DNA of 64,000 bases from Deltaproteobacteria bacterium (GTDB taxonomy: Bacteria; Desulfobacterota; Desulfarculia; Adiutricales; Adiutricaceae). Each line of letters opens with the position of its first letter. Positions within the stretch are counted from its first letter, which is position 1. This document shows positions 25,509 through 52,509 of this stretch, piece after piece. Position numbers and translations under genes: made by a program. The DNA lies in contig JAISEL010000035.1 in NCBI GenBank assembly GCA_031264185.1, positions 1 through 64,000 on the forward strand, in the 5' to 3' direction. The notes under the pieces were generated by a model. That model saw nothing but the letters and a program-made list of their open reading frames with translations, was not told the origin of the DNA and made no database searches.

Positions 25509-26699
25509 ATGGTTACTGACGCCAAAACATTAGACCGTGAATTTTATGAAGATACAGCCCAGGAGGAAGGCGGGCGGAAGTGGGCCTTTTTTTGGTGGAC
25601 GATTATAACCCTCCTGATTATTGCCCTCTTGTGGCCCTATGTCATTGTAAAAATTGATCCCGGTCATGTCGGGGTCCTTTACCGCCGTTTTTTTGGCGGT
25701 ACAGAAATGAGGTATGTCTTCAAGGAAGGCACCCACTCGATCTTTCCCTGGGACACCATGTACAAATTTGATGTACGGTTGCAAAATGAAACTTTAGCTC
25801 TCAGTGCCTTAAACAGAATTGGATTGACGATAGATTTGGAAGCAACTATAATTTTTCATCCAATATCTGTCAGAACCCCTGAATTATTAACAGAAGTTGG
25901 TACTGATTTTATTGAAAAGATATTAATACCAGCCTTACGATCCTCAATAATTGATACGGTAGCATCACATGGGACTGAAGATTTTTTTAATGAAAGTATA
26001 GACGTTATTCAAGATGAAATTTTAGTTATGACTGTCTCAGCTATCGATCGAATGCCTGTTATGGTCGATAATATCCTAATCAGAAACATTAGAGTTCCCC
26101 GGGAACTGAATGAAGCTATAAATAAGAAGATTATAGCCGAACAGAAGGTTTTAGAAGAACGGAATTATGTGGAAGTGGCTAAAGAAAAATACAAAAAATC
26201 TTATGTGAACGCCAGCGCTGTTCGTTTAACTCAGGAGATTGTTAATCCTTTGATGACTCCTTCCTTTTTGCGCTATAAAGGCATAGAAGCCACAGAGAAT
26301 TTAGCCGCCAGTCCAAACTCCAAGGTGGTAATTGTTGGAAATAGAGACGGCTTGCCTTTGATTTTAAATCTTGAAGGCGAAGCGGCCTCGAAAGCCCAGA
26401 ACTCCCCCTTGACTCCAGCCCTTCCGGCTATGGATCCGGCCCAGAGTTCTAATGCGGTTCAGCCCGGAACAAGTTCAGGAGGTCAAAATGAGCCTGGAGC
26501 GGAGAGTATTCCAGGTTTTCCCCAAGCAGCAGACCGGCTTTCACTTTCAGAAGCTCCGAAACCGCAGATGGATAGTTTTACAGCGTCTAATTTAGAGAAA
26601 CTGGTCGGAACCTTAAGCCAAGCCATAGGTTTATCGCAATTAGCCGGGCCTGAGCAAAAAGATAAAGATCAGTCGGAAAATAACAATAAAAGTGAGTAA
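25509..26699 (+). CDS. SPFH/band 7 (prohibitin/HflKC-like) membrane protein
   Basis: N-terminal TM (WWTIITLLIIALLWPYVIV) followed by the band-7 core IDPGHVGVLYRRF...; C-terminal low-complexity tail. Confidence 0.7.
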   Translation: MVTDAKTLDREFYEDTAQEEGGRKWAFFWWTIITLLIIALLWPYVIVKIDPGHVGVLYRRFFGGTEMRYVFKEGTHSIFPWDTMYKFDVRLQNETLALSALNRIGLTIDLEATIIFHPISVRTPELLTEVGTDFIEKILIPALRSSIIDTVASHGTEDFFNESIDVIQDEILVMTVSAIDRMPVMVDNILIRNIRVPRELNEAINKKIIAEQKVLEERNYVEVAKEKYKKSYVNASAVRLTQEIVNPLMTPSFLRYKGIEATENLAASPNSKVVIVGNRDGLPLILNLEGEAASKAQNSPLTPALPAMDPAQSSNAVQPGTSSGGQNEPGAESIPGFPQAADRLSLSEAPKPQMDSFTASNLEKLVGTLSQAIGLSQLAGPEQKDKDQSENNNKSE

Positions 26700-26944: not shown

Positions 26945-26965
26945 TCATTTCGGGTAAATTTTGCT

Positions 26966-28075
26966 ATGACAGCATTCTCCATAAAGATTGACCAAAAGGC
27001 CAAAAAATTAATATGGCAGATTGCCATTGGGGTTGTTTTAGCCGTGATGGTTATTACAGTCCTGGGCCTCCCGACTCAGGCCGCTGCTCAAAAGCGAGGT
27101 GCCCCTGAAAACCCCTACCGGGCGGCTTACGTCTCAGCTCGGGAATATTGGGCTTTTGTAAAATTTTTTTCTCTCTTTCGAGACCGCTTAGAGATTGAGG
27201 GTTGGGGAAGCAAAGTAGCCTTCCCGGGCGAACTGAAATTAATCCTGGATGACTATGAGTCCCCGGAGGCTAAAAATGCAGCCGTTTCCCGGCTTTTAGA
27301 CAGAGAGGACATTGATCTGGTTTTAAGTCTGGGCACGGAAGCGACCCAGTATGTTCTGAACAACAATTCTCAGGGGCGGCCTGTATTAGGTTGTTCTATA
27401 AGTAATCCCATATCTTCATTTTTAATTGAGGATGCCGAATATTCCACTAAGCCTAATTTTACGACTGTCATTTTTAATAATTCGCTTGCCAACAACATGT
27501 TTGCAATATTCCACCAGTTTCTGGGTTTTAAGAAATTGGGCATCGTGTACGCGGATAATGAGTTTGCCAGATCCTACTCCTTTCTGAATGAAGCCAGAGA
27601 GGTCGCCAGAGACCGGGGCTTTGAACTTTTGGAGTATGACCGGCTTGATTCGGCGGAGTCTTATGAATCATGCGTTAGAGGCGTTCAGGATTTGGTGCAA
27701 AGAGGCATTGATGCGCTTTTTATCACTAACACCGCCTGTTTCGACACCAACAGTAATAATTTAAAAGAGCTGTATACTTTACTATATGATAATCATATTA
27801 TTACTCTTGCAGCTGAAGATTTTGACCAAGTTCGACTTTACGCTTTATTTGGATATATTTTTATGGAATTATCGCCTATAGTGATTGAATTCCAAGTTAA
27901 TCAAGCTATTAAAATTTTATCTGGAAAGAAAACTAATGAAATACCGATTAAAGTTAATGCTTTTAGTCAATATGTTATTAATTTAGCGGCAGCGGAAAGA
28001 TTAAACTTAATAATTGACGATTCTTTATTGATTTTTAGTGATATACTTTTTCTCGATCTTAAAGGTATGGAGTAA
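26966..28075 (+). CDS. periplasmic substrate-binding-protein-like lipoprotein/anchored protein (ABC_sub_bind-like)
   Basis: Signal-anchor followed by an alpha/beta periplasmic binding fold-like sequence. Assignment by general resemblance only. Confidence 0.4.
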   Translation: MTAFSIKIDQKAKKLIWQIAIGVVLAVMVITVLGLPTQAAAQKRGAPENPYRAAYVSAREYWAFVKFFSLFRDRLEIEGWGSKVAFPGELKLILDDYESPEAKNAAVSRLLDREDIDLVLSLGTEATQYVLNNNSQGRPVLGCSISNPISSFLIEDAEYSTKPNFTTVIFNNSLANNMFAIFHQFLGFKKLGIVYADNEFARSYSFLNEAREVARDRGFELLEYDRLDSAESYESCVRGVQDLVQRGIDALFITNTACFDTNSNNLKELYTLLYDNHIITLAAEDFDQVRLYALFGYIFMELSPIVIEFQVNQAIKILSGKKTNEIPIKVNAFSQYVINLAAAERLNLIIDDSLLIFSDILFLDLKGME

Positions 28076-28755: not shown

Positions 28756-28877
28756 CTTTTTTCTTGGCTGAGAAAAATGACTGTGACCCAGTTGAACCGG
28801 CGAAATCGGCTGGCTGATCTGGTCAGCTGGGTCATGGCTATAATTAAGTATATCTATTATGTTTTAATTAGGTAAAA

Positions 28878-28897
28878 TATTTAATATATATTAAATA
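28878..28897. promoter_or_regulatory. 20-bp perfect palindrome TATTTAATATATATTAAATA in the AT-rich leader upstream of the BGC
   Basis: Exact inverted symmetry, about 260 nt upstream of ATG 29159. Confidence 0.3.
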
Positions 28898-29158: not shown

Positions 29159-32100
29159 ATGGGAAAAATAAAAAAATCCTCTCATGATAATTTAGCGGAC
29201 CGGATTGCATTTTTAGTAAGTTTCGCTTTATTGGCGGTTCTGGCTGTATTTCAGGCTGGCCCTGTCTACGGCCAGGCCGACATGACTGAAGTAACCAATT
29301 CTATGGCTGATTATTTTGGAACACTGACCGGCAAAGATCTCATAATCGGCACGAAAATTAAGGAAAGCAGCTCAAGCTTTCCTACTACTCCTGAGTCCTT
29401 TTATTACAGCGCTCAGTCCAATGCTGCTTTAACTGAGACAAGCAGCTTCAATAGAATTAGGATTGGCAGCCAGTCCAAAATGTTTACCGCTGCGGTTATT
29501 CTGGCTTTAATGGATACTAGTCACGATTTTAGCCTGGAAACCACCATAAATGAGCTGTTGGAGATCCAGGCGGTCAAGGACGCTCTGCCGGCCAACGCCC
29601 AAGAGCGCATCGGTCATTATGCCGTTAAGGATCTTCTGAATATGGGGACCGATGTCCCAAATTATCTGGCCGTGCCCTCAGATCCTGACCATCCTGATGT
29701 CCCGTTTGTGTATTACTGGCTAGCTAGTCAAGCTAACGGGGCCACTGGAGGTTACGGCTCGGTTGAAGGCTACGACGACGATGCGACTGTCTATAAAAAG
29801 TTAGCCGAACTGGCGCTTATCGGTCAGCCGATTCCGCCTTTGACTCCGCCTTACAATTCCGAGTATTCCAACAGCAATGCCGTGATCCTCGCCCTCATTG
29901 CCCAGGCTTTGACCGGGGAAGATTTTGGGCATCTTCTAGATGAGTACCTGAAATCCGAAAGTATCACAAGCACCATTCTGCAGAGTTCAGTCGGGGACAC
30001 TGGCGGCAATGAACATATGGTAGGCACCGACGGGGGGCCTAGGATAGTCAATTTGGATCCCAGACTGGCCTGGACGTCCGGGGCAGTGATCACGACCATG
30101 CCGGATCTCTTGAACTCCCTGAATAAATTTGTCTCGGATTCCAGAAGAACTGAAGATCAATATACCACGCTAATGTCCATGCATGGAATGCCAACCCACT
30201 ACGGTCTGGGTCTGATGACACTGGATTTCCAGGATTTCGAAGCCGGACCGGTGCTGGCCACCGGTCACGGCGGGGCTATACCCGGCAGCACTTCTTTTTC
30301 TGCCTGGCTGAGAACCCATGATCCGAACCAAACTCTTAATACCCTTTTAGGGGTGTACCTCAACGGCTCCACCATCCTGACCTCCGGCGGCATCTTGGCG
30401 TCCCAGGGCTCGGAATCCATGTTCGTTAGCATGGTCGAACACCTTTACCGCCAGTACCGGGCAGAGGAATACGGTATAGCACCAAACGTAAACGGCAGTG
30501 ATTATACCCTTATATATAACGGCGATCCCAGCGGCTATTCCAGCGGCAACAGCGCCGCAGCTGCAATTGCCGCCAGTAATCTCTCCTTTGAGCTGACCGG
30601 GACTCTGGCTGGAAAGTCAGCGGTGCCTTCCATCGCTTACCTTGACACGGACACCGTAAGTCCGGGCTATTTCGGGCCGGGGGGGCTGATAAACGGCATA
30701 ACCTCCGTCACCTTGGATCCGGTCTACACTTTTTACGGGAAAAACGACTTTGTGGCAGCAGGTCACGTTTCGGTGGCTTTAACAGTCGCTGGCGCTCTTT
30801 CAATGCCCTCTTGGGCCAGAATTGAAAGCTATGCCAACGGACAAACGGCCGGCCGCAGATTTAACCTTCTCAGTTTGCCGGCCGGTTCTACGGGAGATAT
30901 AAACGGTCAGGTCGCCGCTTACGGCAGCAATGTCCTGGCTGTCCGGGCCGGCAGAAATTTAACGGTAGGGGAGAGCGGAGTCATTGAGGCCCACGGGAAC
31001 AAGGCCGCCGCTCTTGAGCTTTCAGCCGGAAACGGCAATATCGTCAACGGCCGGATCACAGCGGTGGGTTCTGGAGTGGTCGGTCTGGAAGTAAGCCCCG
31101 GGGCCGGGGTTACGGTCGGCTCTAAAGCCCTTATCCGGGCTGACAGTTACGCTTTGTCGGCCAAAGAAGACAATAACAAGTTTGTATATCTGGCTTCTAA
31201 CGAAGAAAATGCCGCTACAGCGGCCCGAGTTTTGTCCGGGGGCAGTCTCACTGCAGATGGCGGGACAATTATGGCCCGGGCCGATTATCCGACCCCGGAC
31301 GGTATCGTCCATGACCCGGGAGGAACTATCGATCTGAATGATCCGGCCAGCAGCCTGAAAGCCGGGGTGCTGGTTACCGGCTTAGAGTCAAACGGCGGGG
31401 CCACGGCCTTAAAAAACAGGGCCCAGATTTCAAGTTACGGCCAGGCGGTCAGTTTTGTCGGAGGGACGAATGACTTTCAGGCCGAAGATTCCCTGATTCA
31501 GGGCTCTGTCTACAGCTTTCACATCAAGTCCAGCTTGGCTTCAAATGATTCAGTGCATTTAAATTTAGAGAATTCGGTAGTATTAGGCAAAATATATTCT
31601 GAGGCCCAAGCCGGTTCAGTCTCTGTAGAGGCCGACGCCCGAACCGTAATCTTAGGGTCAAGTCTGGATCAGCCGGTCATAGAGTCGTCAGGACGGCCGA
31701 TTGACCTGCAGTTCAGTCCAGGAACCACTATCGGTTGGGACACTCCCGAAATCCCGGAAATTGGGGAGGAGGTTACAGTGATTTCCGGGGCCGCGTCCTC
31801 GTCCGTTTTAGATGGAGTCCGGGTAGCCCTTGGGCCTCAGGGCGTTTTGGATTTCACTTTAAGGACCAATGGCGGAGGTCAGCTGGCTCTCCAGGTTTCC
31901 GGTCTTTCCGGAACTTACGGACGCAATGCCCTGGAGATTTACGAGGCTTTCAGGCAGCGGACCGCAGGCCGGTCCTCGGATGTCCGGCAGCTGGCTTGGG
32001 ACGCTTTGCAGGATGCCAACAATCTGGCCCCGGAAGGGACGGTCGGTCAGTATTACGCCGGTCTGGCAATGTTTCAGCAGCTGACCTATAAGGCCAATCA

Positions 32101-33037
32101 GGCCATTAAAAATAAGCTGCAGTCCTCCTTTGGGGCTTCTGACCGGACCCCGGCCGCCGGTTCCGAATCTGGAGCGGAAGGCAATTGGCTTATAGCGGTC
32201 AGTTACGGCCATTTTGACCTGGACCGGAAAAGCGTCAGAGCCTACAGCGGCTATGAAGTTAACGGCGATGCGGTGACTTTGGGCATAGGCCGCCTTTTAA
32301 TTCCAGGTGTCAGTCTGTCGGCCTATCTGGCTTTAGGTCAGTCTGAGACGGAATTTGATCACTTAAGGTTCGACATGGACAGCGATTTATTCATGGCCGG
32401 AGCCAATCTTGGGTTCCATCACGCAATCAGTCCGGACTTGAGCTGGAACCTCTACGGCGGCCTCTCAATCGGCCGGACTGACAATGATTACCGCCGCCGG
32501 GTCGGCATTGCTTTCCCCCAAGGTTACAGCGGGTCTTTTCAGCAGGATTACTTTGGCCTTAATGCTGAATTTAATCTCATTAAAAAAATCTCACCCCAAA
32601 CTTCTTTCATCCCAAAGATCAGCGTAAGTTACATTAGAGCCGAACAGGACGGCCTCAGGGAATCCGGCGGCCAAATTACCGCTTTGACTACTGATTCCTT
32701 TAAGACTGACACCATAAAGACCCTGGTCGGGGCGGCTTTAGCCCATGACTTTGAGGTTTCTGACCAGAAAATTTTGACTTTGAGCGGGGAAGTCGGCTGG
32801 GAACATACAGGCGGCGATCGCAACCCGACGGTCAGAGGTTATTTTACCAACTTTCCGGTGACGACTTTTGTCACCAGATCCTCAGAAAATCCCCAGAACG
32901 CCTTAAACCTGGGACTGTCTATGGAATTGAGCAACCGCTCAAATCTGGGAATGAGCCTGAACCTGGAGGCCGACTTCCAGGTGGCCGAAAAAGAGACCAG
33001 CCAGCAGTACGCTCTGACTTTTAAGTACGTATTTTAA
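29159..33037 (+). CDS. type Va autotransporter with N-terminal S12-family (beta-lactamase fold) serine hydrolase passenger, beta-helical stalk and C-terminal beta-barrel
   Basis: Signal peptide. SxxK (GSQSK), YxN (EYSNSN) and HGG..PG (TGHGGAIPG) motifs of class C beta-lactamase / D-aminopeptidase / ClbP-type S12 enzymes in aa 90-400. Gly/Asn-rich pertactin-like repeats 550-900. C-terminal 300 aa of alternating-hydrophobic strands ending ...YALTFKYVF (aromatic terminus). Confidence 0.8.
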   Translation: MGKIKKSSHDNLADRIAFLVSFALLAVLAVFQAGPVYGQADMTEVTNSMADYFGTLTGKDLIIGTKIKESSSSFPTTPESFYYSAQSNAALTETSSFNRIRIGSQSKMFTAAVILALMDTSHDFSLETTINELLEIQAVKDALPANAQERIGHYAVKDLLNMGTDVPNYLAVPSDPDHPDVPFVYYWLASQANGATGGYGSVEGYDDDATVYKKLAELALIGQPIPPLTPPYNSEYSNSNAVILALIAQALTGEDFGHLLDEYLKSESITSTILQSSVGDTGGNEHMVGTDGGPRIVNLDPRLAWTSGAVITTMPDLLNSLNKFVSDSRRTEDQYTTLMSMHGMPTHYGLGLMTLDFQDFEAGPVLATGHGGAIPGSTSFSAWLRTHDPNQTLNTLLGVYLNGSTILTSGGILASQGSESMFVSMVEHLYRQYRAEEYGIAPNVNGSDYTLIYNGDPSGYSSGNSAAAAIAASNLSFELTGTLAGKSAVPSIAYLDTDTVSPGYFGPGGLINGITSVTLDPVYTFYGKNDFVAAGHVSVALTVAGALSMPSWARIESYANGQTAGRRFNLLSLPAGSTGDINGQVAAYGSNVLAVRAGRNLTVGESGVIEAHGNKAAALELSAGNGNIVNGRITAVGSGVVGLEVSPGAGVTVGSKALIRADSYALSAKEDNNKFVYLASNEENAATAARVLSGGSLTADGGTIMARADYPTPDGIVHDPGGTIDLNDPASSLKAGVLVTGLESNGGATALKNRAQISSYGQAVSFVGGTNDFQAEDSLIQGSVYSFHIKSSLASNDSVHLNLENSVVLGKIYSEAQAGSVSVEADARTVILGSSLDQPVIESSGRPIDLQFSPGTTIGWDTPEIPEIGEEVTVISGAASSSVLDGVRVALGPQGVLDFTLRTNGGGQLALQVSGLSGTYGRNALEIYEAFRQRTAGRSSDVRQLAWDALQDANNLAPEGTVGQYYAGLAMFQQLTYKANQAIKNKLQSSFGASDRTPAAGSESGAEGNWLIAVSYGHFDLDRKSVRAYSGYEVNGDAVTLGIGRLLIPGVSLSAYLALGQSETEFDHLRFDMDSDLFMAGANLGFHHAISPDLSWNLYGGLSIGRTDNDYRRRVGIAFPQGYSGSFQQDYFGLNAEFNLIKKISPQTSFIPKISVSYIRAEQDGLRESGGQITALTTDSFKTDTIKTLVGAALAHDFEVSDQKILTLSGEVGWEHTGGDRNPTVRGYFTNFPVTTFVTRSSENPQNALNLGLSMELSNRSNLGMSLNLEADFQVAEKETSQQYALTFKYVF

Positions 33038-33044: not shown

Positions 33045-33114
33045 CTGACTCAAGATAGATCCCTGCAGAACGATTTAGATCAAATGGGTCTGTCTTGAGT
33101 CCAGAATTTTTTTT
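33045..33114 (+). terminator. putative rho-independent terminator between the autotransporter gene and the NRPS
   Basis: About 18-bp imperfect stem (ctgactcaagatagatccc / gggtctgtcttgagtccag) followed by a T8 run. Confidence 0.45.
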
Positions 33115-33237
33115 CTGTAGTTAAATTTTAATATAGCTATCTCTTGAAATTGGGTTTATGTACTTTTCTTTAATAGTAATTGTTTTTAATTAGCTATTAT
33201 TTTATCAAATATATAAATAATGGATCAAATAAATTTA

Positions 33238-36200
33238 TGAATGAGATGTCTCTTCTGGAAGAACTTAAATCAATTGCTTTCAGCAATTTTGGGCTTAAAC
33301 CTGAAGAGATTTCTCTTGAGACCGGTATTCTGGAACTGGGTCTTGATTCACTGATGATCATTAAACTGGGCCGGGAAATTGAACGCCGCTTCGGTCTGAG
33401 CATTCCGGCCAGATGGTTTTTTGCTAACAGGCCTTCACTTAGGGAACTGGCCGTCTATCTGGCTGAACATATACCTCAGAGCAGTCCCGCGCCCGGCTCT
33501 CCGGAGAAGAATCCGGAATTGGCCTCTAAACCGGCTTATGATTCGGATTTAAAGTCTGCAGAGACCGGGATTCAGCCCTCCTCAGCCGGAAGTTCGGTTC
33601 TCGGCCCCCGGAAAGATGCAGAAGGGGCGGCTAAGTTCTCCCCGGACAGGAACAGGGCCGGCCGTCAGGCCGCCGCCAGGTTCCCTGAGCCCTGCCGTTC
33701 CCCAAAGCCCCCTCAGTCCTCTCAGGCCTATGACGGCCCTGCCGGGCCTTCCGGAGCCAGTTCCGATTCCGGCGGCGGCTTGACCGCTGACCGGCTGGCC
33801 CTGTTCAAGCTACAGATGGAGGCCATGAATGAGCTGTTCGCCGCTCAATGGCGCGGTCTGGCTGAAGCTCCAGTCAGAAGGGCCGCTGGAGATGATCAGG
33901 CCGGCTCAAGTAACGCCGGTGATCTAAGAGGCGGACACAGTTGCATAAAAAAGGAAGAGTTCCCCCAATCCCCGAAACCGGCTTCGGTGAGCCGTAATTT
34001 TAGAGGCTTCGTTCTGGAGGAAGAGCCGCTGTCGGACGAACAGCTGGCTTTTATCCGGGCCCTGACCGAACGCCATCTGAAAAGGACCCGAAAATCCCGG
34101 GAGCTTCATCAGGCCAGCCAGGCTTTGGCAGACTGGAAATCTTCTCTGCACTACCGTCAGATTTTAGGACAGCTGGCCTATCCTATTGCGGCCCACCGAA
34201 CCTACAGAGGCCGCTTTACTGATGTGGACGGCAATGATTATCTTGATGTCGCTCTGGGCATGGGGGTCAATTTTCTGGGGCACAACCCAGAGTATATAAA
34301 TCAGGCTGTCAGAGGACGTTTGGAAAGGGGCTACGGACTCGGCCCCCAGTGCGATCTGACCGGCCCGGTGGCTTCAGGGATAGCCAAACTGACCGGGCTG
34401 GAGCGGGTTTGCTTTTGCAACACCGGCTCTGAAGCGGTGATGTTTTCCTTAAGGCTGGCCCGGGCCAGGACCAAAAGACCTTTGATTGCTATATTCAACG
34501 GTTCTTACCACGGCACTTATGACGGCATTTTGGCGGAAGACGATCACGGGCGCACGGTGACCTACTCCCCGGGAACCCGACCGGGCATGGTCGAAGATGT
34601 CCTGGTCTTAAATTACGGCTCCGATGAGGCCTTGGAGGCCATTAAAGAAAATGCCGGCCGTTTGGCGGCGGTCCTGGTAGAACCGGTCCAGAGCCGCAAA
34701 CCCGCGCTTCAGCCCCAGTCCTTTTTGAGACGTTTGCGGAAACTGACTGAAGAATTCGGCATAGCCCTGATCTTCGATGAAATGATCAACGGTTTCCGGA
34801 TAGCTCCGGGCGGGGCCCAGGAATTTTTCGGCGTCAGGGCGGATATGGCTCTGTACGGCAAACTTATCGGAGGCGGTCTGCCCATCGGTGTAGTGGCCGG
34901 GGCGGCCAAATGGCTGGACGGCATTGACGGGGGACGCCGGGAGTACGGTTCCCCTTCGCCGGAGGTTATTGTTTTTGGCGGGACCTTTTGCCGGCATCCC
35001 TTAAGTCTGGCCGCTTCAAAGGCTGTCATTGAGCATCTGCTGGAGCAGGGGCCAAAGCTTCAGGGCCGGGTCGCCAAAATGGCCGACGATCTGGCCGCCA
35101 GTCTGAACCTGTGGTTTCAGGACAGCCAGGTGCCATTAAGATTATTTAATTTTGGGCCTCAGTTTATTTTTGAAGGATACGGGCCCTGGTCGGCTCTGGT
35201 TAACCCTTTGGAACTGGATCTGTTTTATCTGCTGCTTTTAGAAAAGGGAGTTTACGTCTGGGAAAGGCGGACTTGCAGCCTGTCGGCGGCGCACACCGCA
35301 GAGGAGTTGGATTTTTTTGCGGCCAAAGTCCGGGAAGCGGTCACGGAAATAAGAGACCGCGGCTTTGAGTTCGGGCCTGATCTGGCCTACGGGGCTCCGA
35401 AACTGCTAAGACCCATGAACTATATTCAAAAACGGTTCTATGCAATTTTTCAGTCCCCTAACGGTCAGGATCCCTATCATCTGACTGTGGGCTTCCGTCT
35501 GACCGGTCAGGTCCGGCCGGATCTTCTGGAAATAGCCCTGGGGCGTCTCATTGAGATTAATGAGGCCTTAAGATCAGACTTTCGGCATATCGGGTCAGAT
35601 TTAGTTTGCTATGCTAAACCTTGGGTGCCGTTTCACCTGATTCAAGAAAAAACAGACCCGAATACTCCCTTAAAATCCTTGGTTGGCCGGTTAACCGAAC
35701 CCTACAACTTGCAGCAGGCTCCTCTCTTTCGGGCCGGCTTATTCGACCGGGGCGAAGATTTCATCTTTATCCTGGATGCCTCCCACCTTATGATCGACGG
35801 CGCCGGATTAGGTCTGATGTTAGGTCAGTTAAATCAGCTGATGAACGGGGAGTCCCTGTCTCAGACTGTAAAATTGGCCGAAGTCGAAGAGGATTTGAAT
35901 CACTATTTGGGCAAGCCTGACAAAACTGCCGGAAACAAAGGGCCAAGTGAGGCTGACCTTAGCTACTGGAGCGAAAAGCTTCAGGGTTTGGAGCCTTTGG
36001 CCTGGCCTTTGGATTTTCCGGCTAAAAGCGGGTCTAAAACCGGCTGCCAGAAATGGTTCGAGGTCAGCGCCCAGCAGCTCCAGAGTTACCGGCAGACCGC
36101 CCGGAAATTCGGTTTGACTCTCAATATGCTCTTAAGCGGCCTGTATGTTCTGACCCTCCACCGCTTTACCGGCTCCTTAAGGCTTTGCGTGGCTTTAGCC

Positions 36201-39200
36201 CACAGCGGCCGCTTCACTGAAAAGTCGGAAGAGGCGATCGGCCTTTTTGTGACCACAGTCCCCCAGGATTTTCAAGTTGATCCTCAGGCGGGCTTAGAGG
36301 CTTTCTTTAACGGAATAAAGTTCAGCGCCTTAGAAGCTTTGGAGCACCCCCACGCCCCCTATGAGAGTTTAAGCAAAAGACTGGGTTTTTCTCCGGCTCA
36401 GTCTATGCTCAGTTATGAAAAAGGCGGGTTCAGGTGTCCGGAATGGCCCGGTGTAGAAGCCAGGCCGCTGGCGCTCCCGGCTAACGGGGCTATGTACGAT
36501 CTGTCTTTAGACATAGTGGAGATGAATGACGGCTTAAAGATTAATCTCATTCATTCCGAGGCCTTTCGGGGGGAAACTGCAGAAATCATAGGACAGTACT
36601 ATTTGGATTTGGCCCGGACCGTAACGGCTTTAACGGCAGGCCCTCTCTGCGAAGATCTGACGGTTTCCGAAGTTCTGGCTCAGTCCGATATTTGGGAAAA
36701 AAAAACTGGTCAGTTTCTGTTCAATGATCAAAAAACTCCGGCAGATTTCGATGTCATAGAAAGTTTGGCTGAATCAGCCCGGAAGTTCCCTCTTCGCCTG
36801 GCGGTGGCCGTCAGCGACCAGAGCTGGAACAACCTGACCTATGCCGAACTGAATCTTGCGGTCAGTAATCTGGCCTCGAACCTGATGATCCGGGGACTGG
36901 GCCCCGGCCCGCCGGTCGCAGTCTGCCTGCCGAGGATCCCGCTTTATGCCGTGACAATCTTAGGGCTGTTAAAGGCCGGTCTGACTTTTCTGCCTCTGCC
37001 TTTGCCGTGTCCGCCCCGGCGGCTGAACTTGATCTTAGCTGATTCCGGAGCCAGATATCTTCTGGCCCTGGATAAGCCGGCGGATCTGCCTGCGGAAGTC
37101 CAGTGGCTCGATCCTGGGGCTTTGGCTGATCTGCCGGTAACCACGGTGGCATCTTCGCCGGGCTCCCCGAGCCTCCCGGCTCAGAAGACGTCTGCCCCAG
37201 ACGATTTGGCCTACATTATCTACACTTCCGGCTCCACCGGCCAGCCCAAAGGGGTCATGATTGAAAGGCGCGGATTGCATAATCTTTTGGCCTGGTATTT
37301 AAAGGAGTTCAAGCTGACCGAAAACGACCGGGTCAGTTCTTTTGCCCCTTTTTCCTTTGATGCCTCAATTTGGGAGATATTCCCTCCTCTGATGGTCGGG
37401 GCCGAACTTCATATCCTGTCGGAAGAAGAGCGGCGGAACGGTCCAAGACTCTGGCAGTTTTTAAAGGACCGCCGGATTACTGTCTGCTATCTACTGTCTC
37501 AGGTGGCCGAACTTCTGCCGGGGGAGAGCCTTCCTGATTTAAGAATTCTGTTAAGCGGCGGCGACAGGCTTCACTTGAAGGAGCCGAGGGGCAGTTATCT
37601 TCACTACAACACTTACGGCCCAACCGAGTTTACGGTGACTTCCCACTTTTTCCGGCTGAACGGCACTTCGCCGGTCCCTATCGGCAAGCCGGTGGCTCAA
37701 AGTCAGGGTCTGATTTTGGACGGAGACGGACGGTTATGTCCGCCGGGAAGACCCGGAGAGCTTTGCTTGTCCGGACCCCAACTGGCCAGAGGTTATGCGG
37801 GGCGGGAAGATTTAACGGCCAAAGTCTTTGGGCCGAACCCTTTCCCGCCTAAAGACGCCCATGGTCAGGCCGTTGAAGGTTTTGCCAGGATGTACCGGAC
37901 CGGCGATCTTTGCCGCCTCCTTCCTTCCGGTGATATTGAATTTTTAGGCCGGTTGGACAGGCAGCTTAAAATCCGGGGTCATCGGATCGAGCCGGGAGAA
38001 ATAGAAGGGGCCATCTTACAGCACCCGAATGTCACCGAAGCCTTAGTCGTCAAAAGTTCCGGGCCCGGGGAAAAGCTGTGGGCTTACGTGGCGCCGGAAA
38101 CAGTGGATGTTTCCGGTTTGCGGAGTTTTTTAGCAGAGATCCTGCCGGACTATCTGGTGCCGGAGGGATTGACCCCGCTGGCGCGGCTGCCCTTATCCCA
38201 AACCGGGAAGATTGATGCGGCGGCGCTTCCTGACCAGACCGGCCGGAATGAGAGTTTTGAACCGCCTCAAGGTCCGGAAGAAGCGGTATTGGCTGCGGTT
38301 TTAGGGGAAGCGCTGAATTTGCCTGAAATTAGCCGGACCGCCAATTATTTTGCTCTGGGCGGGGACTCAGTGGGGGTGATTTCGGTCACCTCTAAATTAC
38401 GGGCCCGGGGCTACTCCCTGACGGCCTCAGATTTTTACCAGAGCGCCGGGTTAGCGGATTTGGCCAGGAAACTGAAAAAGCGCGGCTTATCTGACTTAAC
38501 TGGCCGGACTGGCTTAGCCGGCTTAAGCGAACCGGCGCCGGAGGGCGGTCCTGGAACGGGAGAAAGCCGTTTTGGGGGGGATTTTTTGAAGTCCTCCGGT
38601 CCCTCCAGGGCGTCGGCGGAAATTTCTTCCCGGCCTGAAGAGCCGGCCGAGGCGTCCGTTGGCGGCGGCTTCAGGGAAAGTCCGGTTGATTTTCCGGTCT
38701 ATCCGGCTGATTCGGTCTCAAAAGAGGTTAAAGATGAGATCGCCCGGTTTTACCAGGGCGATGTGGCCGCAGTCTGGCCGCTGTCTCCCCTCCAAAGATC
38801 GATCCTCAGTCAGATGGCCCTCTCCGGGTCCGGGGCCGATAAGGAAACTTATATAGAGCAGACCCACCTGCGTTTGCCGGACTCCAGTTCGTTTGCTCCG
38901 GACCTGCTCCGGAGCCGGTTAGAAAGATTATTGCAGACTGCGGATATTTTCCGTTTCAGCGTTTACCGCTCTTCTCCGGAAGCCCCGGTCCAGGTTCAGA
39001 GGAGGACGATCCCGGATTTAGCTGAAGTTTATTCGGAATTTGATTTAAGTGATCTTAGCGACCGCGGCATTCAGGAAAAAATCGTAACTTTCCGGAATGA
39101 GCACTTTCAAAGGCTTAGCAACATCTCTTCCGGGCCTCTTCTGGCTCTGACCCTGATAAAAAATAATCAGGCCGGTTTTGATTTACTGGCCTCAACCCAC

Positions 39201-42200
39201 CATCTGATGAGCGATGCCTGGAGCGAGGGGCTGTTTTTTGCATCCCTGTTCGGCAGCGGCCGGGCGCCTTCTGCCGGTTTCGCCGGTTATCTTAAAGCCG
39301 TTTCTCTGAACGACCAGGAGCCGGACCGGATATTCTGGCGTGATTTTTTGAAGGATTTAAATGAAATAACCGAGCTGCCGGGGTACAGACGGCCCCTGAC
39401 GCCCGGCCTGACCGGCCGCGCCGTTAACCCGGGGGAAAGCGATAATTTAGCGCCGGCCCAAGTTTCAGGCCGGTCAGGGGAAAATTTAAAAACTCTGTCT
39501 TTTCCGCTTAATTTGCAGCAAAGCAATGACATCAGGAAGGCAGGCCGCTGGCTGCAGGCTGCGCCGGCCCTGTTTCTGGAGGCAGCCTGGGCCGTAATAG
39601 CGGCCAGGGCCGCCAGAGTCAGTCAGGTTTCCTATGCGGTGATCGATAACGGCCGCTCTCTGCCTCTCCAAGGCATAGCCGGTGTGATAGGCCCTTTGCT
39701 GACCGTCCTGCCCAGGCGGCTTTTCTACAGTCCGGAGTCCACTTTGGCCGATATGGTCAGGCAGATTTCCGCTCAAATGTCCGAAGTTCTGCCTCACGCA
39801 AACTTAACTTTGGCGGACATTCAAAAATGTTCCTCCCTTGGCCCGGGTTTTCTGACTCAGGTTTTTAACTACAGGCCGGCTGTAAGGACGCCTGAAGGAA
39901 TTCAAATTAAAAAAATTGACGATAAAAGCCGGGCTGAAGGCTTCCCTTTGGCTGTTAACTGGGAAAAATCAGATAATCTCTTCACTTTAGACTTTATCTA
40001 TGACAAAGCCGTCTTTGACTCTTATACGGTCAAATCCTTAGCTGAAGCCTATCTGCATTTTCTGAACACTATTTTTCAGGACATTCCCCGGCTGGCCGCC
40101 AAAGAGCAGCTCCGGCGCTTTAGTCTGTGTTCAGATGAGGAAGTCAGAAAACTGGTCACAGTCCGTAACGCTCCCGCCGTGAATTATCCGATCAGGACTG
40201 TGGTGGACGACTTTAACTCTTTGGCCGGCCGTTTTGAGGAAAGTCCGGCCGTCATTACCAGGGAGAAGAGGAAAACCTGCCGGGAGCTTGATGAAGAAAG
40301 CTTTTATCTGGCTGTCAGGCTTTATGAGATCTTTCAGAAGAGCCGTTTGAAGAGCAGAATGTCTTTCCGGGCGGCTCTTCTGCTCCCAAGGGACGTTAAC
40401 TATCCCGCCGCCGTCTGGGGAGTTCTGCGTTCGGGGGCGAGCTTTGTTCCTCTGGAATTGGGCGCCCCTTTGGAAAGGCTGTTATTTCAGCTCGATCAAA
40501 CCGGGGCCTCGGCTGCAATCGTTAATAAATCCCAGTTTCCTCTCTGGGCTGAACTGTCCCGTAAAAGGCCGGCCTTACAGATTTTGGATCTGGAATCCAG
40601 CCTGAGCCGGCCGCCGGATTATCCGAATGAACTGCAAGGCCGGAAGCTTCCGCCGGTCAGACCCTCCGATGAGGCCTACATCCTCTTTACTTCCGGCACT
40701 ACCGGTCAGCCCAAGGGAGTTTCTGTCCCCCACCGGGCCATCTATAACCATAACCGCTGGTTTGGAGACCTGATGGACGCCCAGCCCAGCGAAGTCCACA
40801 GCGCTTACGCGGCCTGGACCTTTGATGTTTCGGTTATGGAGATTTTGCTCCCCCTGAGCCGAGGGTCTGCGATCTATATTTTTGATGAATCGGAGCGCTT
40901 TGAGCCGGGGCTGATCAGCCAGGCGGTCAGGAACAACAGCATAAAGCATCTGTGGCTGCCTCCCCAGGTGGGCCAGACTTATATGGCCAACTACTCCCTC
41001 AGGGGCCTGAAAACCCTTAGTTTGGGCGGAGGGGTCTTTCCTTTGCCTTTTAAGGTGTTTGATCAGGGGGACTGCCGGCTGATTAACGGCTACGGGCCAA
41101 CGGAATGCGCGGTGACGGTCACCGCTAATTCAGCCGGACCGGGGTCTTGGCCGACTAATATCGGCGCCCCTGGAGCCAACTGCCCCATTTATGTCCTGGA
41201 TCCTTATGCAATGATGGTCCCTCTGGGCTTTGCCGGGGAATTGGCGGTGGGCGGGGTCCAGGTCGCCAGCGGCTACCTTCCCCCCGATCCCAATGATCCG
41301 CTGGTCTGCCTGGATCCGGGCGCTGATCCGGATTCGTCTGACGGTTCTGAGAATATCAAGGGGACACCGCCGTTTTTACCGGATAAGTTTTTTCATTACC
41401 GGAACGGCCAGTCCGGGCTTTATCCGCTTTACCGGACCGGAGATCTTGTCAGAAGACTGCCGGACGGGGCTTACGAGTTTTTAGGCCGCCTCGACCGGCA
41501 GATTAAAATAAGGGGGCGGCGCTTGGAGGTGTCGGAGATTGAAAAGGTTATCGCCGGCAGCCCTAAGGTGACCGAAAATACGGTAATTAAATGGACGGAA
41601 AATACTAAAGAAAAACTCATAGCCTATGTGGTCTTCCATCCGGCCGGGTCAGACGGCAGCGCAGAGCTGAAAAAAGAACTGGGCCTGAAGCTGCCTTCCT
41701 GGATGATTCCGGATTACGTTATGGCGGTTCCCCGGATCCCGAAAACCGCTTCAGGCAAACCCAACCTGACGGCCCTGCCCAAGCCGGTTTTAGTCTCGGT
41801 CTTTCAGGCTCCGGAAACCGCAGAGGAAAAGATTCTCGTGGCTGTTATCCGGGAGGTTTTAGGGGATGACAGCCCTATCAGTCTGGAAGATGACTTTCTG
41901 GCTTTGGGCGGAGATTCTGTTAAAGCCATTATGGCCGTGGCTTTACTGGAAAAGAGGGGATACAAGCTGCCGGCCAGGGCCTTATACGATGAGGCTACCT
42001 TAAGAGCCCTGGCCGCCTCTTTAAAGCCGGTGCCCGGCAGCGGCCGGGACAAAGCAGCCTTTGAGGCCGGTTCGCCGGGCGGATTCCGCCCGGCCTGTTC
42101 CGGCAGATCAGATGACTCTGACAGGGGGGTCAGCTTTTCTGACTCAGCAGTCTCAGAAGCTGCCGAGGGTTTCCAGGCCTTAGAGTCCTCGGTTTTCAGC

Positions 42201-51200: not shown

Positions 51201-51701
51201 GATTTGGCCTCGGCTGTTGGCTGGTTTACGGTTTTGTATCCGGTCCGGCTAAGCTTAGGATCAACCCCCTTGGATACTTTGAAGATCGCGGCCGAAAAAC
51301 TTAGGGCTGTCCCTCATAACGGCATCGGTTACGGCGTTTTAAAATATCTGGCCGGGCAGAATAATCCTGGCTGTCCGCCCGGCTGTTCCGGTCCGGGGGC
51401 TGAACTGCCTAAACTCCCTTGGCTTAAGCGTCCGGCTGACGTTCTGTTTAACTATTTAAGTGAAATTAATTCCGGGGCTGAAGAAACCTCTTCAATAAGT
51501 ATTGAGAGGCTGGGCTCCCCCTACGACAGTCCGGTCACTTTTCCGGCCCAGGGATCTTTGTCCGTAAGCGCTTTTATCGACAGGGGCGCTCTGAAATCCA
51601 CCTGGATTTGGTCTGAGGCGATCAACATTGATCTGCTGAGCTGGGCTGCCGGGTTCCAAGCCAGCCTGCTTGGCTTAGGACGTATTTTAAAGGGCGTTTA
51701 G
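33238..51701 (+). CDS. non-ribosomal peptide synthetase, about 6150 aa: ACP - class III aminotransferase (AMT) - C-A-T - C-A-T - C-A-T - C-A-T - TE(Cys) - C
   Basis: Carrier motif GLDSL (about 33340). AMT PLP-fold with YGKLIGGG (34150-35400). C motifs SHLMIDG (35787), HHLMSDAWS (39199), HHVILDGWS (43018), HHLILDGWS (46494), HHLVVDNVSW (50680). Four A domains each with (Y/F)TSG(S/T)TG(Q/E)PKG, FD(A/V)S, N.YGPTE, YRTGD, K.RG. Four PCP GGDS(V/I/L)(K/G)A motifs. TE with GLCLAG at 49785. Start codon uncertain (33180/33238/33247, all in frame). Confidence 0.95.
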
Positions 51702-51705: not shown

Positions 51706-52509
51706 ATGAGTCGCTTTTTAGTGTTAGCCGGCCGGCTGGCCCCGGAGCTTTTAGACCGGAATCTAGGCGGTTTGACCAGGCTGTTCGGTTATCTGGCCGA
51801 AGAGCAGACTTTGGCAATTCAAAAAAACCGGCGGCCTCAAGATGCGGCCTTAAGGCTGCTGGTCCGGGTGTTATTGGTTAAAGCCTTAGATCTTAACGGT
51901 TTGGACGGCCTTTCAATACTGCCTGATCTTATCTGGAATGACCGTGGTCAGCCGGAACTGAAAGGAAGCCCTCTGAGGTTAAGCTTCAGCCACTCCTGGC
52001 CTTACGGGGCCTGCGCTGTAGCTTTGTTTCCTGTGGGGGTGGATGTGGAAAGAATCCAGCCATTGGCGGTCGGCGGGGCCGGTTCGGTTTTCTCGGATTC
52101 TGAAGTGCGCCGCATTTCGGGATCCGATGATCCTCAGTCGGAAGCCATCCGTCTTTGGACAGTCAAAGAGTCCGGTCTTAAAGCTCTTGGGGCCGGATTT
52201 TTAGAAGATCCTAAAAGGCTGAAAACTGAACCGGTCTTTAATGAGTCAGCCGGACAAAAGGCGCCGCCAGCGGGGCGGTCGGTTTGGGGCAGTCGGACGA
52301 TCTATTTCGGGCATTTGCCGGTGGACCCAGGCTACTGGCTGTCCTGGGGCGCCTGTCCGGATTTTCAGGAGCCGCCGGTAAATTCTCAGGCCGGTCAAAG
52401 TCTTAAAGCCTCTGAACAGGTCCGGGCCTCTGCCCGTTTTTTCGGGCCGGCCTCCCTTATTTATCTGCCCCGGGTCAGTGAGTATATAATGAACAGACTC
52501 ATAGAGTGA
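51706..52509 (+). CDS. Sfp-type 4'-phosphopantetheinyl transferase
   Basis: Motifs GVDVE and WTVKESGLKALG. Starts 4 nt after the NRPS stop. Confidence 0.85.
   Translation: MSRFLVLAGRLAPELLDRNLGGLTRLFGYLAEEQTLAIQKNRRPQDAALRLLVRVLLVKALDLNGLDGLSILPDLIWNDRGQPELKGSPLRLSFSHSWPYGACAVALFPVGVDVERIQPLAVGGAGSVFSDSEVRRISGSDDPQSEAIRLWTVKESGLKALGAGFLEDPKRLKTEPVFNESAGQKAPPAGRSVWGSRTIYFGHLPVDPGYWLSWGACPDFQEPPVNSQAGQSLKASEQVRASARFFGPASLIYLPRVSEYIMNRLIE

Follow-up and report, generated by a model that had tools for sequence, protein, structure and literature searches.

We have analyzed a gene for a predicted autotransporter that carries a serine hydrolase of the beta-lactamase fold (S12) and lies immediately upstream of an NRPS in a 64,000-nucleotide stretch of DNA, referred to below as the window. 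The features of the gene and its surroundings are summarized in Table 1. The ORF has an ATG start with AAGGA just 5' of it, and its product is identical to MDR1084178.1 at NCBI, where the sole annotation is 'autotransporter domain-containing protein'; the JGI label is 'CubicO group peptidase (beta-lactamase class C family)'. The Pfam check proposed in an earlier note on this DNA gave matches above the cut-off for both domains: PF00144 (Beta-lactamase) matches aa 99-383 with 43.1 bits (cut-off 27) and PF03797 (Autotransporter) matches aa 1023-1269 with 112.4 bits (cut-off 26). The single hydrophobic segment found by hydropathy, aa 14-36, is consistent with a Sec signal peptide, and the N-termini of relatives are alike; the cleavage site was placed by eye.

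Table 1. Features of the S12-autotransporter gene and its neighbourhood in the window
Feature	Position	Strand	Basis or remark
SPFH/Band_7 membrane-scaffold protein	25509..26699	+	Pfam Band_7, 81 bits
Membrane-anchored ABC_sub_bind-type substrate-binding protein (SBP)	26966..28075	+	Pfam ABC_sub_bind, 47 bits
DUF697 small membrane protein, 180 aa	28213..28755	+	Pfam DUF697, 34 bits; two hydrophobic stretches (hydropathy)
Perfect 20-bp A/T palindrome TATTTAATATATATTAAATA	28878..28897	.	in 27%-GC leader 5' of autotransporter gene
S12-autotransporter gene	29159..33037	+	ORF, 1292 aa; Pfam Beta-lactamase and Autotransporter
Predicted Sec signal peptide, aa 1-39	29159..29275	+	basic n-region, hydrophobic aa 14-36, ...VYG/QA
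S12 (beta-lactamase-fold) catalytic domain, aa 40-440	29276..30478	+	motifs, model
Catalytic codons	S104 = 29468-29470, K107 = 29477-29479, Y236 = 29864-29866, H370 = 30266-30268	+	
Beta-rich stalk, aa ~540-916	30776..31906	+	short repeated strands, solenoid-like; blocks mostly pLDDT > 90
Alpha-helical linker before barrel, aa 924-992	31928..32134	+	helices at model residues 494-562
Type Va autotransporter beta-barrel translocator, aa 1010-1292	32186..33034	+	PF03797, Foldseek, terminal F
Stable hairpin + T8 between autotransporter gene and NRPS	33047..33114	+	terminator- or attenuator-like
NRPS, 6154 aa from ATG	33237..51701	+	ACP-aminotransferase-C-A-PCP-(C-A-PCP)x3-TE(Cys)-E-like; Pfam, motif map
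4'-phosphopantetheinyl transferase	51706..52509	+	Pfam ACPS
PKS (AT-KS-AT-DH-KR-ACP-ACP)	52552..59769	+	Pfam
PKS KS-AT	59766..62894	+	Pfam
ABC exporter gene, 5' part (membrane domain), runs off window	62940..64000	+	collinear BLASTP, E 3e-11

The S12 motifs previously read from the sequence (SQSK, YSN and HGG) are present as S104-Q-S-K107, Y236-S-N238 and G-H370-G-G372, and are invariant in an alignment of nine family members; the third motif is HxG, not KTG. Judged by these motifs, the passenger appears to be a catalytically intact serine hydrolase. The model of the domain has a pLDDT of 80.3 and a pTM of 0.85, and among solved structures the domain comes closest to alkaline D-peptidase, dHy1, D-amino-acid amidase and the secreted R61 DD-peptidase. 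The domain groups with these D-stereospecific peptidases/amidases and R61 rather than with housekeeping PBPs or AmpH; placement with the latter is what the earlier note had named as counting against its proposal. Identity to these relatives is only 15-19%, and specificity of the passenger for D-residues is suggested at that distance. The comparison with ClbP drawn earlier did not hold: the domain groups elsewhere, fails three features that define the ClbP type, and was rejected as a member. Class C beta-lactamases match the S12 family profile only at E 0.2-1.

The model covering the stalk and barrel has a pLDDT of 83.4, with about 12 long strands at aa 1010-1291. Foldseek matched the translocator best to EstA, AaaA and NalP (TMt 0.81-0.87), and also to EspP, Hbp, BrkA and AIDA-I. 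Pertactin was absent from the top 50 matches of this model, and the description of the stalk as 'pertactin-like' therefore applies to its strand pattern only. The modelled helical linker before the barrel is an arrangement typical of EstA and NalP. As had been described, the barrel ends in KYVF, the terminal F being invariant among the aligned family members. The S12 passenger would thus be exposed at the cell surface.

The NRPS begins with ACP-aminotransferase-C-A and, as the earlier note had recognized, has no canonical N-acyl-D-Asn starter module. Its only E-type domain is located after the TE; the best solved relatives of this C-terminal domain are the epimerisation domains of TycA, GrsA and BacC, and its match to TIGR01720 is sub-threshold. 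Since the NRPS ends in a TE (Cys) and an epimerase-like domain, a D-residue substrate is plausible for the S12 enzyme. The KS-AT PKS presumably supplies a beta-keto acyl chain for conversion by the NRPS aminotransferase, a role that we assume by analogy with iturin/mycosubtilin-type assembly. The product expected of the cluster is a beta-amino-fatty-acyl tetrapeptide that includes one or more D-residues. The exporter gene matches the membrane domain of an ABC transporter in locus L017, which itself lies between DUF697 and Band_7.

An exhaustive search of 1.84 billion representatives returned, as its 13 best matches (E <= 1e-52), proteins of 1145-1308 aa that all contain S12 and autotransporter domains. 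This close clade is sharply delimited, with the score falling from 195 to 127 bits after these matches. The passenger class is uncommon, as had been said, but it is not unique to the clade, since 23 or more representatives of clusters at 50% identity have the architecture. The earlier note had also named absence of the gene beside orthologous clusters as evidence against a link to the NRPS. An NRPS (ACP-AMT-C-A...) adjoins the gene in all 12 distinct close-family loci with enough flank to judge (the window, L001, L003, L004, L006, L008, L010, L099, L012, L014, L091 and L095). Two further contigs break off, L002 inside a PP-binding ORF that begins just past the S12-autotransporter gene and L007 in an unannotated ORF, itself cut (138 aa), whose start is 183 bp past the gene. 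Autotransporter proteins of the NRPS-linked loci share only 22-56% identity, and the NRPS N-terminus 58-67% across orthologous loci. Three gene orders are seen, DUF697-AT-NRPS, AT-DUF697-NRPS (L095) and NRPS-x-AT (L091), with differing outer flanks (Pirin in L010, AAA_14 in L095, Band_7/SBP elsewhere) and in some loci operon-like spacing (18 bp in L014, 67 bp in L010). In Ca. Kapaibacterium (L022), from another phylum, a stand-alone S12 protein (426 aa) and DUF697 lie directly 5' of a homologous PKS-NRPS. This S12 protein carries a lipobox with an acidic run behind it (...VVSC-SDDDDG) and, as a predicted lipoprotein in place of an autotransporter, represents a second route to the cell surface. 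Among 80 AMT-containing NRPS loci of GTDB species representatives, S12 and DUF697 occur only in those closest to the NRPS of the window. A functional link between the S12-autotransporter and the cluster is strongly supported by this conserved gene context. At least a dozen uncultured bacteria, distantly related to one another, have this pairing, and a role of the enzyme in handling the cluster product extracellularly is thus very probable.

The membrane genes on the 5' side, a conserved DUF697 partner and the Band_7 and SBP genes, were missed by the earlier note. DUF697 adjoins the S12 gene in 13 close-family loci, in L022, and in two loci with distant S12-autotransporters (L092 and L093); from its position it is nearly always the partner of the S12 gene. 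The DUF697 protein has no relative among solved structures, and a literature search turned up no functional account of it. Band_7 orthologues lie 5' of the S12-autotransporter gene in L002 and L008, beside the distant one in L093, and beside a related PKS-NRPS in L017; Band_7 is a frequent, not universal, companion. The SBP, with orthologues in L002, L007, L008 and L101, is likewise frequent. Because L017 has DUF697, an ABC transporter and Band_7 attached to its PKS-NRPS without S12, DUF697 and Band_7 are themselves companions of this type of BGC.

The palindrome reported earlier in the AT-rich leader exists, with one occurrence in the window, but its place is 5' of the autotransporter gene alone, outside the NRPS leader with which it had been said to be shared. 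None of the 110 related loci has its core, and no comparable palindromes were found upstream of S12-autotransporter orthologues; since it is not conserved in any relative, its significance is doubtful. The terminator-like hairpin before the NRPS was borne out. Its 16-nt arms (33047-33062 and 33086-33101) are 88% complementary, the RNA fold has a dG of -30 kcal/mol (z -5.1), and T8 follows; its loop of 23 nt made it escape a simple terminator scan. In L001, L006 and L010 hairpins likewise come after the stop codon of the orthologue. Given the hairpin and T-run, the gene and the NRPS may not be co-transcribed in the window.

We suggest that the best explanation of the gene is a dedicated surface D-peptidase which, with DUF697, is an accessory of the PKS-NRPS and acts on the exported lipopeptide; we give this a probability of about 0.45, and we infer both the substrate and the direction of the biological effect. 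The lipopeptide would be assembled in the cytoplasm, released by the cis TE and exported by the ABC transporter of the cluster. The S12 domain would cross the inner membrane via Sec and the outer membrane via its own barrel, and the stalk would hold it away from the cell surface. Ser104, with Lys107/Tyr236 as general base, would then attack and hydrolyse an acyl-D-aminoacyl bond of the lipopeptide. Ring opening or trimming could shield the outer membrane of the producer from a membrane-active product, an effect that we favour modestly by analogy with the BGC-encoded D-peptidases BogQ and TriF.

Precursor activation is the other possibility for its action. The NRPS product would leave the cell less active or inactive and the surface peptidase would cut at a D-residue, freeing the active compound and so sparing the cytoplasm and periplasm of the producer, by the logic of ClbP/Lip3 without ClbP homology. 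The neighbourhood evidence is the same for this reading, the cluster has a dedicated exporter, and S12 activators of natural products are known (ClbP and Lip3/Lip7; PMC12903863); moreover, the S12-autotransporter hardly ever occurs outside the setting of the cluster, whereas resistance peptidases have spread to non-producers. However, the NRPS has no prodrug-type starter module, ClbP is not the nearest relative, and the SPFH/Band_7 and DUF697 companions suit membrane protection at least as well. With the sole E-type domain at the C-terminal end of the NRPS, it is mainly in a cyclised product that a D-residue would be followed by a bond on its carbonyl side, and cleavage of such a product usually inactivates. 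We consider such maturation possible, though on balance unlikely.

The main rival to a lipopeptide peptidase is an envelope module independent of the NRPS, in which the S12-autotransporter, DUF697, Band_7 and SBP act on another surface or environmental substrate (candidates are D-amino-acid-containing peptides, muropeptides of neighbours, or esters) and adjacency to the NRPS is linkage without shared function. In L093 a distant S12-autotransporter (P0054, ~26% identity) occurs together with SBP, Band_7 and DUF697, with no NRPS in the flanks seen (7.7 kb and 0.9 kb), and in L092 another is followed by DUF697, although both contigs are short. In L097, a member of the close clade, the downstream side, seen for 7.4 kb, has no NRPS; at least 10 further S12-autotransporter cluster representatives lie outside the close clade, and in the window the hairpin and T-run point to transcription of the gene as a unit of its own. 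Yet within the close clade adjacency to the NRPS persists through the divergence, gene orders and outer flanks described above, L010, L095, L022 and L091 keep the NRPS without Band_7 and SBP, and L017 ties DUF697 and Band_7 to a related PKS-NRPS without S12. We consider an independent module a doubtful explanation.

The enzyme might instead be a surface transpeptidase that forms an acyl-enzyme with the exported peptide at a D-residue and passes its acyl part on to an amine acceptor, so that the peptide is cyclised or becomes linked to a component of the surface. PBP-type cyclases such as SurE and Ulm16 cyclise peptides with a C-terminal D-residue and show that the fold can do so, the R61 DD-peptidase/transpeptidase ranks with the nearest relatives by structure, and the NRPS ends in an E-like domain. 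Still, the NRPS releases its product via its own TE, no activated leaving group can be inferred for the exported product, chemistry of this kind beyond the outer membrane has no precedent known to us, and this purely inferential reading seems very improbable. That a housekeeping penicillin-binding protein or beta-lactamase (AmpH/AmpC-like) was fused to an autotransporter by chance fits the PF00144 family and the JGI label, but we dismiss it almost entirely, since a passenger beyond the outer membrane cannot reach the peptidoglycan of its own cell, class C beta-lactamases scarcely match the family profile, the third motif is not KTG, and the strict BGC association would be left unexplained.

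The dedicated surface D-peptidase that we favour combines elements of several known systems. EstA (a GDSL esterase), AaaA (an aminopeptidase), NalP/SphB1 (subtilases) and the SPATEs are type Va autotransporters with the same plan of Sec signal, enzymatic passenger, helical linker and 12-stranded C-terminal barrel, but none has a beta-lactamase-fold (S12) passenger or belongs to a secondary-metabolite cluster, and we found no description of a natural S12 autotransporter passenger in the literature. The closest relatives by structure, alkaline D-peptidase (B. cereus, 4Y7P), D-stereospecific amidohydrolase/dHy1 (3WWX, 9S7K), D-amino-acid amidase (2DNS) and Streptomyces R61 DD-peptidase (1CEF), are free, soluble, secreted enzymes without stalk, barrel or BGC association. 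The ClbP/XcnG-type prodrug peptidases (colibactin, xenocoumacin) have in common with it the S12 fold, an extracytoplasmic location and dedication to an NRPS-PKS cluster. S12 D-peptidases that are encoded in BGCs or process lipopeptides include, in the accounts cited, BogQ, TriF, ClbP and Lip3/Lip7 (PMC12903863; Li et al. 2018 in PMC6095874). Lip3/Lip7 are described as DL-peptidases of Paenibacillus that turn lipopeptides into amoebicides (PMC12903863), and BogQ/TriF as resistance peptidases with D-stereospecificity that are encoded in BGCs of Brevibacillus/Paenibacillus (Li et al. 2018 Nat Chem Biol, cited in PMC6095874 and PMC12903863). As portrayed there, BogQ and TriF resemble the present enzyme in being S12 serine peptidases that have a signal peptide, are encoded in a lipopeptide NRPS cluster and act outside the cytoplasm; compared by description, the Ser/Lys/Tyr residues are kept and the fold relatives are D-stereospecific peptidases. 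Those are small secreted Gram-positive enzymes, whereas here the domain would sit at the outer end of a type Va autotransporter of 1292 aa from a diderm, nearly always partnered by DUF697.

The S12-AT gene, which encodes an autotransporter with an S12 (beta-lactamase-fold) serine hydrolase as passenger, lies where the earlier note had placed it, at 29159..33037 (+), and starts at an ATG with AAGGA just 5' of it. Pfam matched the product of 1292 aa to Beta-lactamase (PF00144) at aa 99-383, with 43.1 bits against a cut-off of 27, and to the Autotransporter beta-domain (PF03797) at aa 1023-1269, with 112.4 bits against a cut-off of 26. Neither this protein nor that of the small upstream membrane protein gene, DUF697, matched a family in NCBIfam. 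The three S12 motifs first read by eye are present as S104-x-x-K107, Y236-S-N238 and H370-x-G372 in 9/9 aligned family members, and their order and spacing are those required for MEROPS S12 / Pfam PF00144 serine hydrolases. A simple pattern search recovered SxxK, YSN and GHxG in every full-length member checked of the close clade (the S12-autotransporters most similar to the window protein) and left one pattern unmatched in each of two distant fusions, L092 and L093. Judged from its sequence the catalytic apparatus is intact, and hydrolytic activity is predicted.

The sole hydrophobic segment of S12-AT (aa 14-36) follows a basic n-region and fits a predicted Sec signal peptide; hydropathy revealed no further membrane helix. 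The C-terminal F, the aromatic end for BAM recognition, is invariant in all nine aligned members. AlphaFold modelled aa 40-440 as a PBP/beta-lactamase fold (pLDDT 80.3, pTM 0.85). A separate model of aa 431-1292 (pLDDT 83.4) contains a stalk, a linker and a barrel, and Foldseek matched it to the translocators EstA, AaaA, NalP (TMt 0.81-0.87), EspP, Hbp, BrkA and AIDA-I. The PF03797 match, the ~12 strands, the linker and these translocators together identify S12-AT, by sequence and modelled structure, as a classical monomeric autotransporter of type Va that carries an enzyme at its tip. The passenger is N-terminal to the helical linker and barrel and is predicted to be surface exposed. Its description as having a pertactin-like stalk is reasonable, but the basis for it was the strand pattern alone.

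Three independent comparisons, including the family profile against PDB sequences and Foldseek, agreed on the placement of the S12 domain. The profile matched alkaline D-peptidase 4Y7P (1e-21), D-stereospecific amidohydrolase 3WWX (2e-19) and the R61 DD-peptidase (1e-15), whereas the prodrug-activating peptidase ClbP scored E = 0.12 and class C beta-lactamases 0.2-1. Foldseek ranks 1-8 were occupied by the same D-peptidase, amidohydrolase and R61 enzymes together with dHy1 and D-amino-acid amidase, and ClbP first appeared at rank 11. The third motif is HxG in R61-type peptidases and KTG in class C beta-lactamases. The nearest relatives and the HxG motif place the domain in the D-stereospecific peptidase/amidase-DD-peptidase branch, its D-stereospecificity being predicted only from those nearest relatives.

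The comparison with ClbP made in the earlier note holds as an analogy of logic, but not as family membership or narrow homology, for which three defining features fail: membrane anchor, starter module and closest similarity. The C-terminal three-helix inner-membrane anchor of the ClbP type is absent, the C-terminus of S12-AT being an outer-membrane barrel. The N-acyl-D-Asn starter C-A(Asn)-T-E is missing too, as had been recognized: the NRPS opens ACP-aminotransferase-C-A-PCP with no E after module 1, and orthologous loci start identically. Finally, ClbP was not the closest S12 relative of the passenger in either sequence or structure comparisons. A housekeeping PBP was ruled out because the predicted autotransporter passenger would sit beyond the outer membrane. 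PBP-type thioesterases (SurE, Ulm16) are stand-alone cytoplasmic cyclases for PCP-bound peptides of NRPSs that have no cis TE; this reading was rejected, as S12-AT is predicted to be secreted and its NRPS has a cis TE.

This architecture is rare. Only nine proteins, each with PF00144 and PF03797, came up in a word-indexed protein search; when a profile of the catalytic domain was used, word-indexed searching returned only distant stand-alone S12 proteins and missed the family itself, so that an exhaustive search was needed. Among 1.84 billion cluster representatives, the exhaustive HMM search detected 10,010 S12 relatives at E <= 0.001, of which no more than 15 reached E <= 1e-30. The 13 best hits, with E <= 1e-52, have lengths of 1145-1308 aa and are without exception S12-autotransporter fusions; after them the score steps down from 195 to 127 bits. 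Ten more, far more distant fusions were found among the best 150 of the 10,010 relatives, so at 50% identity the architecture makes up no fewer than 23 clusters and extends beyond the close clade. A tblastn search against plasmids found no S12-autotransporter, its sole match being a Streptomyces beta-lactamase-family sequence. Public records label these proteins only as 'autotransporter domain-containing protein' or 'CubicO group peptidase', and a literature search returned no paper on natural beta-lactamase-fold/S12 autotransporter passengers or on autotransporters in NRPS clusters, and nothing relevant on DUF697 function.

Genomic context was retrieved for every accessible family member, and the gene orders are collected in the table. 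In the window the order is DUF697, S12-AT, NRPS, the last beginning PP-binding-Aminotran_3-Condensation-AMP-binding. The earlier note had made its suggested link depend on conservation next to orthologous clusters, and this is what we found: the NRPS adjoins S12-AT in all 12 distinct loci with the relevant flank, a count that includes the window and takes the identical L098 and L014 once. Two further contigs end too soon, L002 within a PP-binding ORF beginning just 3' of the S12-AT gene and L007 within a cut, unannotated 138-aa ORF beginning 183 bp 3' of it. The sole discordant case in the close clade is L097, which has no NRPS in 7.4 kb downstream and whose contig begins inside the autotransporter gene; the gene set there looks like a resistance island. 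Two relatives, L004 and L091, have a short ORF (118 aa and 83 aa, respectively) that separates the autotransporter gene from the NRPS; neither ORF has a Pfam match or a counterpart in the window.

Coordinates and gene orders of features in the window and in related loci
Feature	Locus	Position	Strand	Remark
Periplasmic-glucan-type gene set	window	8679-17571		
MdoG	window	8679-10331		
GT2 glycosyltransferase	window	10618-12696		
AAA-ATPase_like + PDDEXK_9 gene, low-GC patch	window	12857-14581		
Acyl_transf_3 protein	window	14756-15907	-	
Glucoamylase-family protein	window	15904-17571	-	
First SPFH gene	window	20322-21731	+	469 aa
Second SPFH gene	window	25509-26699		
Stalk of S12-AT	window	aa ~540-916		long run of short beta-strands, high confidence in aa 431-1292 model
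Alpha-helical linker of S12-AT	window	aa 924-992		directly before barrel, model
Barrel of S12-AT	window	aa 1010-1291		~12 long antiparallel strands, model
PCP-TE-E-like tail of NRPS	window	49700-51701		NRPS aa ~5430-6154
PCP-TE-E-like tail of NRPS	L091	6800-8840		
ABC-like ORF	window	62940-64000	+	runs off window end
Window order kept	L001, L003, L004, L006, L008, L010			
Window order kept	L099, L098			found by metagenome scan; L098 identical to L014
Window order kept	L012, L014			two GTDB genomes reached via NRPS rather than S12 gene
Order autotransporter, DUF697, NRPS	L095			Desulfovibrio sp. OttesenSCG-928-M16
Autotransporter 3' of NRPS	L091			83-aa ORF between
Short ORF beside autotransporter gene	L004	5371-5727		
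Short ORF beside autotransporter gene	L091	8864-9115		
228-aa ORF without known identity, class A beta-lactamase, MerR regulator, heavy-metal P-type ATPase	L097	3591-8352		
Stand-alone S12, 426 aa	L022	3098-4378		Ca. Kapaibacterium sp., OZ223197.1; then DUF697, then KS-AMT-containing PKS-NRPS
Related KS-AT-ACP-AMT-C-A synthetase, then DUF697, ABC transporter, Band_7	L017	6710-20161		Ca. Hatepunaea meridiana
Distant S12-AT (~26% identical) adjoining DUF697	L093	158-11706		
Distant S12-AT (~26% identical) adjoining DUF697	L092	314-4297		

Across the NRPS-linked loci the autotransporters share only 22-56% pairwise identity, and the NRPS N-termini are 58-67% identical in orthologous loci. The outer flanks vary (Pirin, AAA_14, or Band_7 with SBP, a substrate-binding protein), and three gene orders occur; the S12-AT spacing goes down to 67 bp in L010 and 18 bp in L014. 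Low identity, varied flanks and several gene orders around a persistent NRPS form the pattern predicted by functional coupling. The adjacency is unlike the residual synteny of close relatives, and a functional link is supported by these sequence comparisons. The set of S12-AT, DUF697 and cluster occurs in uncultured Desulfobacterota/Proteobacteria; some of the sources may, judging from the isolate names 'Nc350_bin39' and 'OttesenSCG', be of insect-gut origin.

Both intergenic regions are low in G+C (27% and 26%, against 53-56% in genes). The hairpin noticed earlier between S12-AT and the NRPS is real, with arms at 33047-33062 and 33086-33101, a dG of -30 kcal/mol, a z of -5.1 and T8 after it; a simple terminator scan omitted it owing to its long loop, and direct folding revealed it. 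L001, L006 and L010 likewise have a hairpin 3' of the orthologue's stop codon. At 28878-28897 the perfect 20-bp palindrome is present as described, but none of 110 related loci has a counterpart; it is given no weight as a regulatory element. At kilobase scale G+C swings between ~36-43% and 50-60%, with swings in window 1-7000, 13000-14600 and 25000-29200. Elsewhere in the window, a low-GC gene splits the periplasmic-glucan-type set.

The order of the window NRPS, from motif mapping and Pfam, is ACP-AMT-C-A-PCP-(C-A-PCP)x3-TE-E-like, where AMT is an aminotransferase domain. It is followed 3' by a PPTase, a PKS (AT-KS-AT-DH-KR-ACP-ACP), a KS-AT protein and, at the window's end, the 5' part of a probable ABC exporter gene. 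Iturin/mycosubtilin assembly serves as the analogy here, and it predicts a beta-amino-fatty-acyl tetrapeptide as the product. In the TE the nucleophile position is occupied by Cys instead of Ser, the local sequence being GLCLAG in the window and AMCMAG in L091, and the epimerase-like domain after it carries PIQKWYF and HHLVVDNVSW; this unusual TE-E tail is kept between the window and L091 at 32% identity. Among solved structures the terminal domain comes closest to the epimerisation domains of TycA, GrsA, BacC and PvdL, and its TIGR01720 match is sub-threshold. Such a domain makes at least one D-residue plausible in the product, probably at the last position. The ORF that runs off the window end is collinear (E 3e-11) with the ABC-transporter membrane domain encoded in L017, where that transporter gene sits between DUF697 and Band_7, a gene of the SPFH membrane-scaffold family. 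It probably encodes the cluster's exporter; a PDB sequence search gave no relative for it.

Of 80 AMT-containing NRPS loci retrieved from species-representative genomes, only L011 (= L003), L012, L014 and L022 have an S12 gene upstream, and DUF697, which has no relative in a PDB sequence search, occurs only in these four and in L017. The PKS-NRPS of L022 is homologous to the window cluster, and its S12 enzyme is not fused to an autotransporter: the N-terminus, ...LSILVVSC-SDDDDG, is a lipoprotein lipobox and then an acidic run. Lauber et al. in 2016 and Valguarnera et al. in 2018 are said to have described this combination as a lipoprotein surface-export signal in Bacteroidota. By analogy the L022 enzyme may reach the cell surface convergently, as a surface-exported lipoprotein, in which case two unrelated secretion routes would place S12 enzymes of the same cluster type at the surface. 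The L017 synthetase has DUF697 and Band_7 beside it and no S12 gene; DUF697 and SPFH are therefore recurrent companions of this cluster type in their own right. A TPR-CHAT protein gene lies immediately upstream of the L017 set. In the window, two SPFH genes lie within 6 kb upstream of the cluster, the first encoding an SPFH/Band_7_1 domain and then several zinc-ribbon repeats.

The window thus contains, as computed, an intact S12 domain, a full type Va apparatus, a conserved DUF697 and PKS-NRPS neighbourhood and a probable cluster exporter. We propose that the lipopeptide would leave the cell through this ABC exporter and then encounter the S12 domain at the surface, where Ser104 would attack an acyl-D-aminoacyl bond. 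If the D-residue is solely C-terminal, the product would offer a bond on its carbonyl side chiefly as a macrolactam whose ring closes at the beta-amine, and hydrolysis would open the ring. Ring-opening hydrolysis of lipopeptides usually inactivates them. This possible ring opening, together with the SPFH and DUF697 membrane proteins in the cluster, modestly favours producer self-protection or turnover.

The strongest rival reading makes S12-AT, DUF697, Band_7 and SBP an independent envelope module. Consistent with this, the distant representative P0054 (L093) lies beside SBP-Band_7-DUF697 on a 12.5-kb contig without an NRPS, where its neighbours include a binding protein of NMT1 type and a fusion of PBP and mechanosensitive channel; P0057 (L092), on a contig of 4.4 kb and again without an NRPS, has DUF697 3' of it, and the window hairpin favours separate transcription of S12-AT and NRPS. 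However, the NRPS persists where Band_7 and SBP are missing (L010, L095, L022, L091), and in L017 a related synthetase is accompanied by DUF697 and Band_7 without S12. Were the envelope module correct, it would still be a new, unstudied four-gene surface module. Precursor activation, in which surface S12 cleavage would mature the exported product, follows the logic of ClbP or of the Paenibacillus DL-peptidases Lip3/Lip7, S12 peptidases that activate precursors (PMC12903863). It is less favoured, and by analogy we rank self-protection or turnover, the logic of BogQ/TriF, only modestly above it. Transpeptidase and beta-lactamase/PBP roles of the S12 domain are possible in principle and poorly supported.

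We therefore regard S12-AT as a candidate BGC-dedicated extracytoplasmic S12 peptidase, mounted on an autotransporter and partnered by DUF697, and consider its cluster link supported. The fuller reading is tentative, with a probability of roughly 0.3: the last PKS-NRPS step, in which a beta-amino lipopeptide is either matured or inactivated in a controlled way, would take place at the outer face of the outer membrane through a pathway-delivered, D-peptidase-like S12 enzyme. Delivery would be by type V secretion in Desulfobacterota/Proteobacteria or as a surface-exported lipoprotein in Kapabacteria, with DUF697 (with or without SPFH/Band_7) as obligatory inner-membrane partner. If true, this would be the first autotransporter-displayed natural-product tailoring or immunity enzyme and a new catalytic class among autotransporter passengers, and DUF697 would gain a first functional, and testable, context. 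In genomes of uncultured anaerobes, the S12-AT and DUF697 pair would sharply mark out beta-amino lipopeptide clusters of an unexplored family, and the passenger could serve as a useful D-stereospecific peptidase.

BogQ and TriF, cited in PMC6095874 and PMC12903863, are extracytoplasmic S12 peptidases that confer resistance to nonribosomal peptides. S12-AT resembles them by description, as a signal peptide and S12 domain encoded adjacent to a nonribosomal lipopeptide cluster. To our knowledge, the known extracytoplasmic S12 peptidases that control nonribosomal peptides are all inner-membrane or freely secreted. A pathway-dedicated S12 enzyme on an autotransporter stalk would bring a new location to natural-product logic, the outer surface of the diderm cell.
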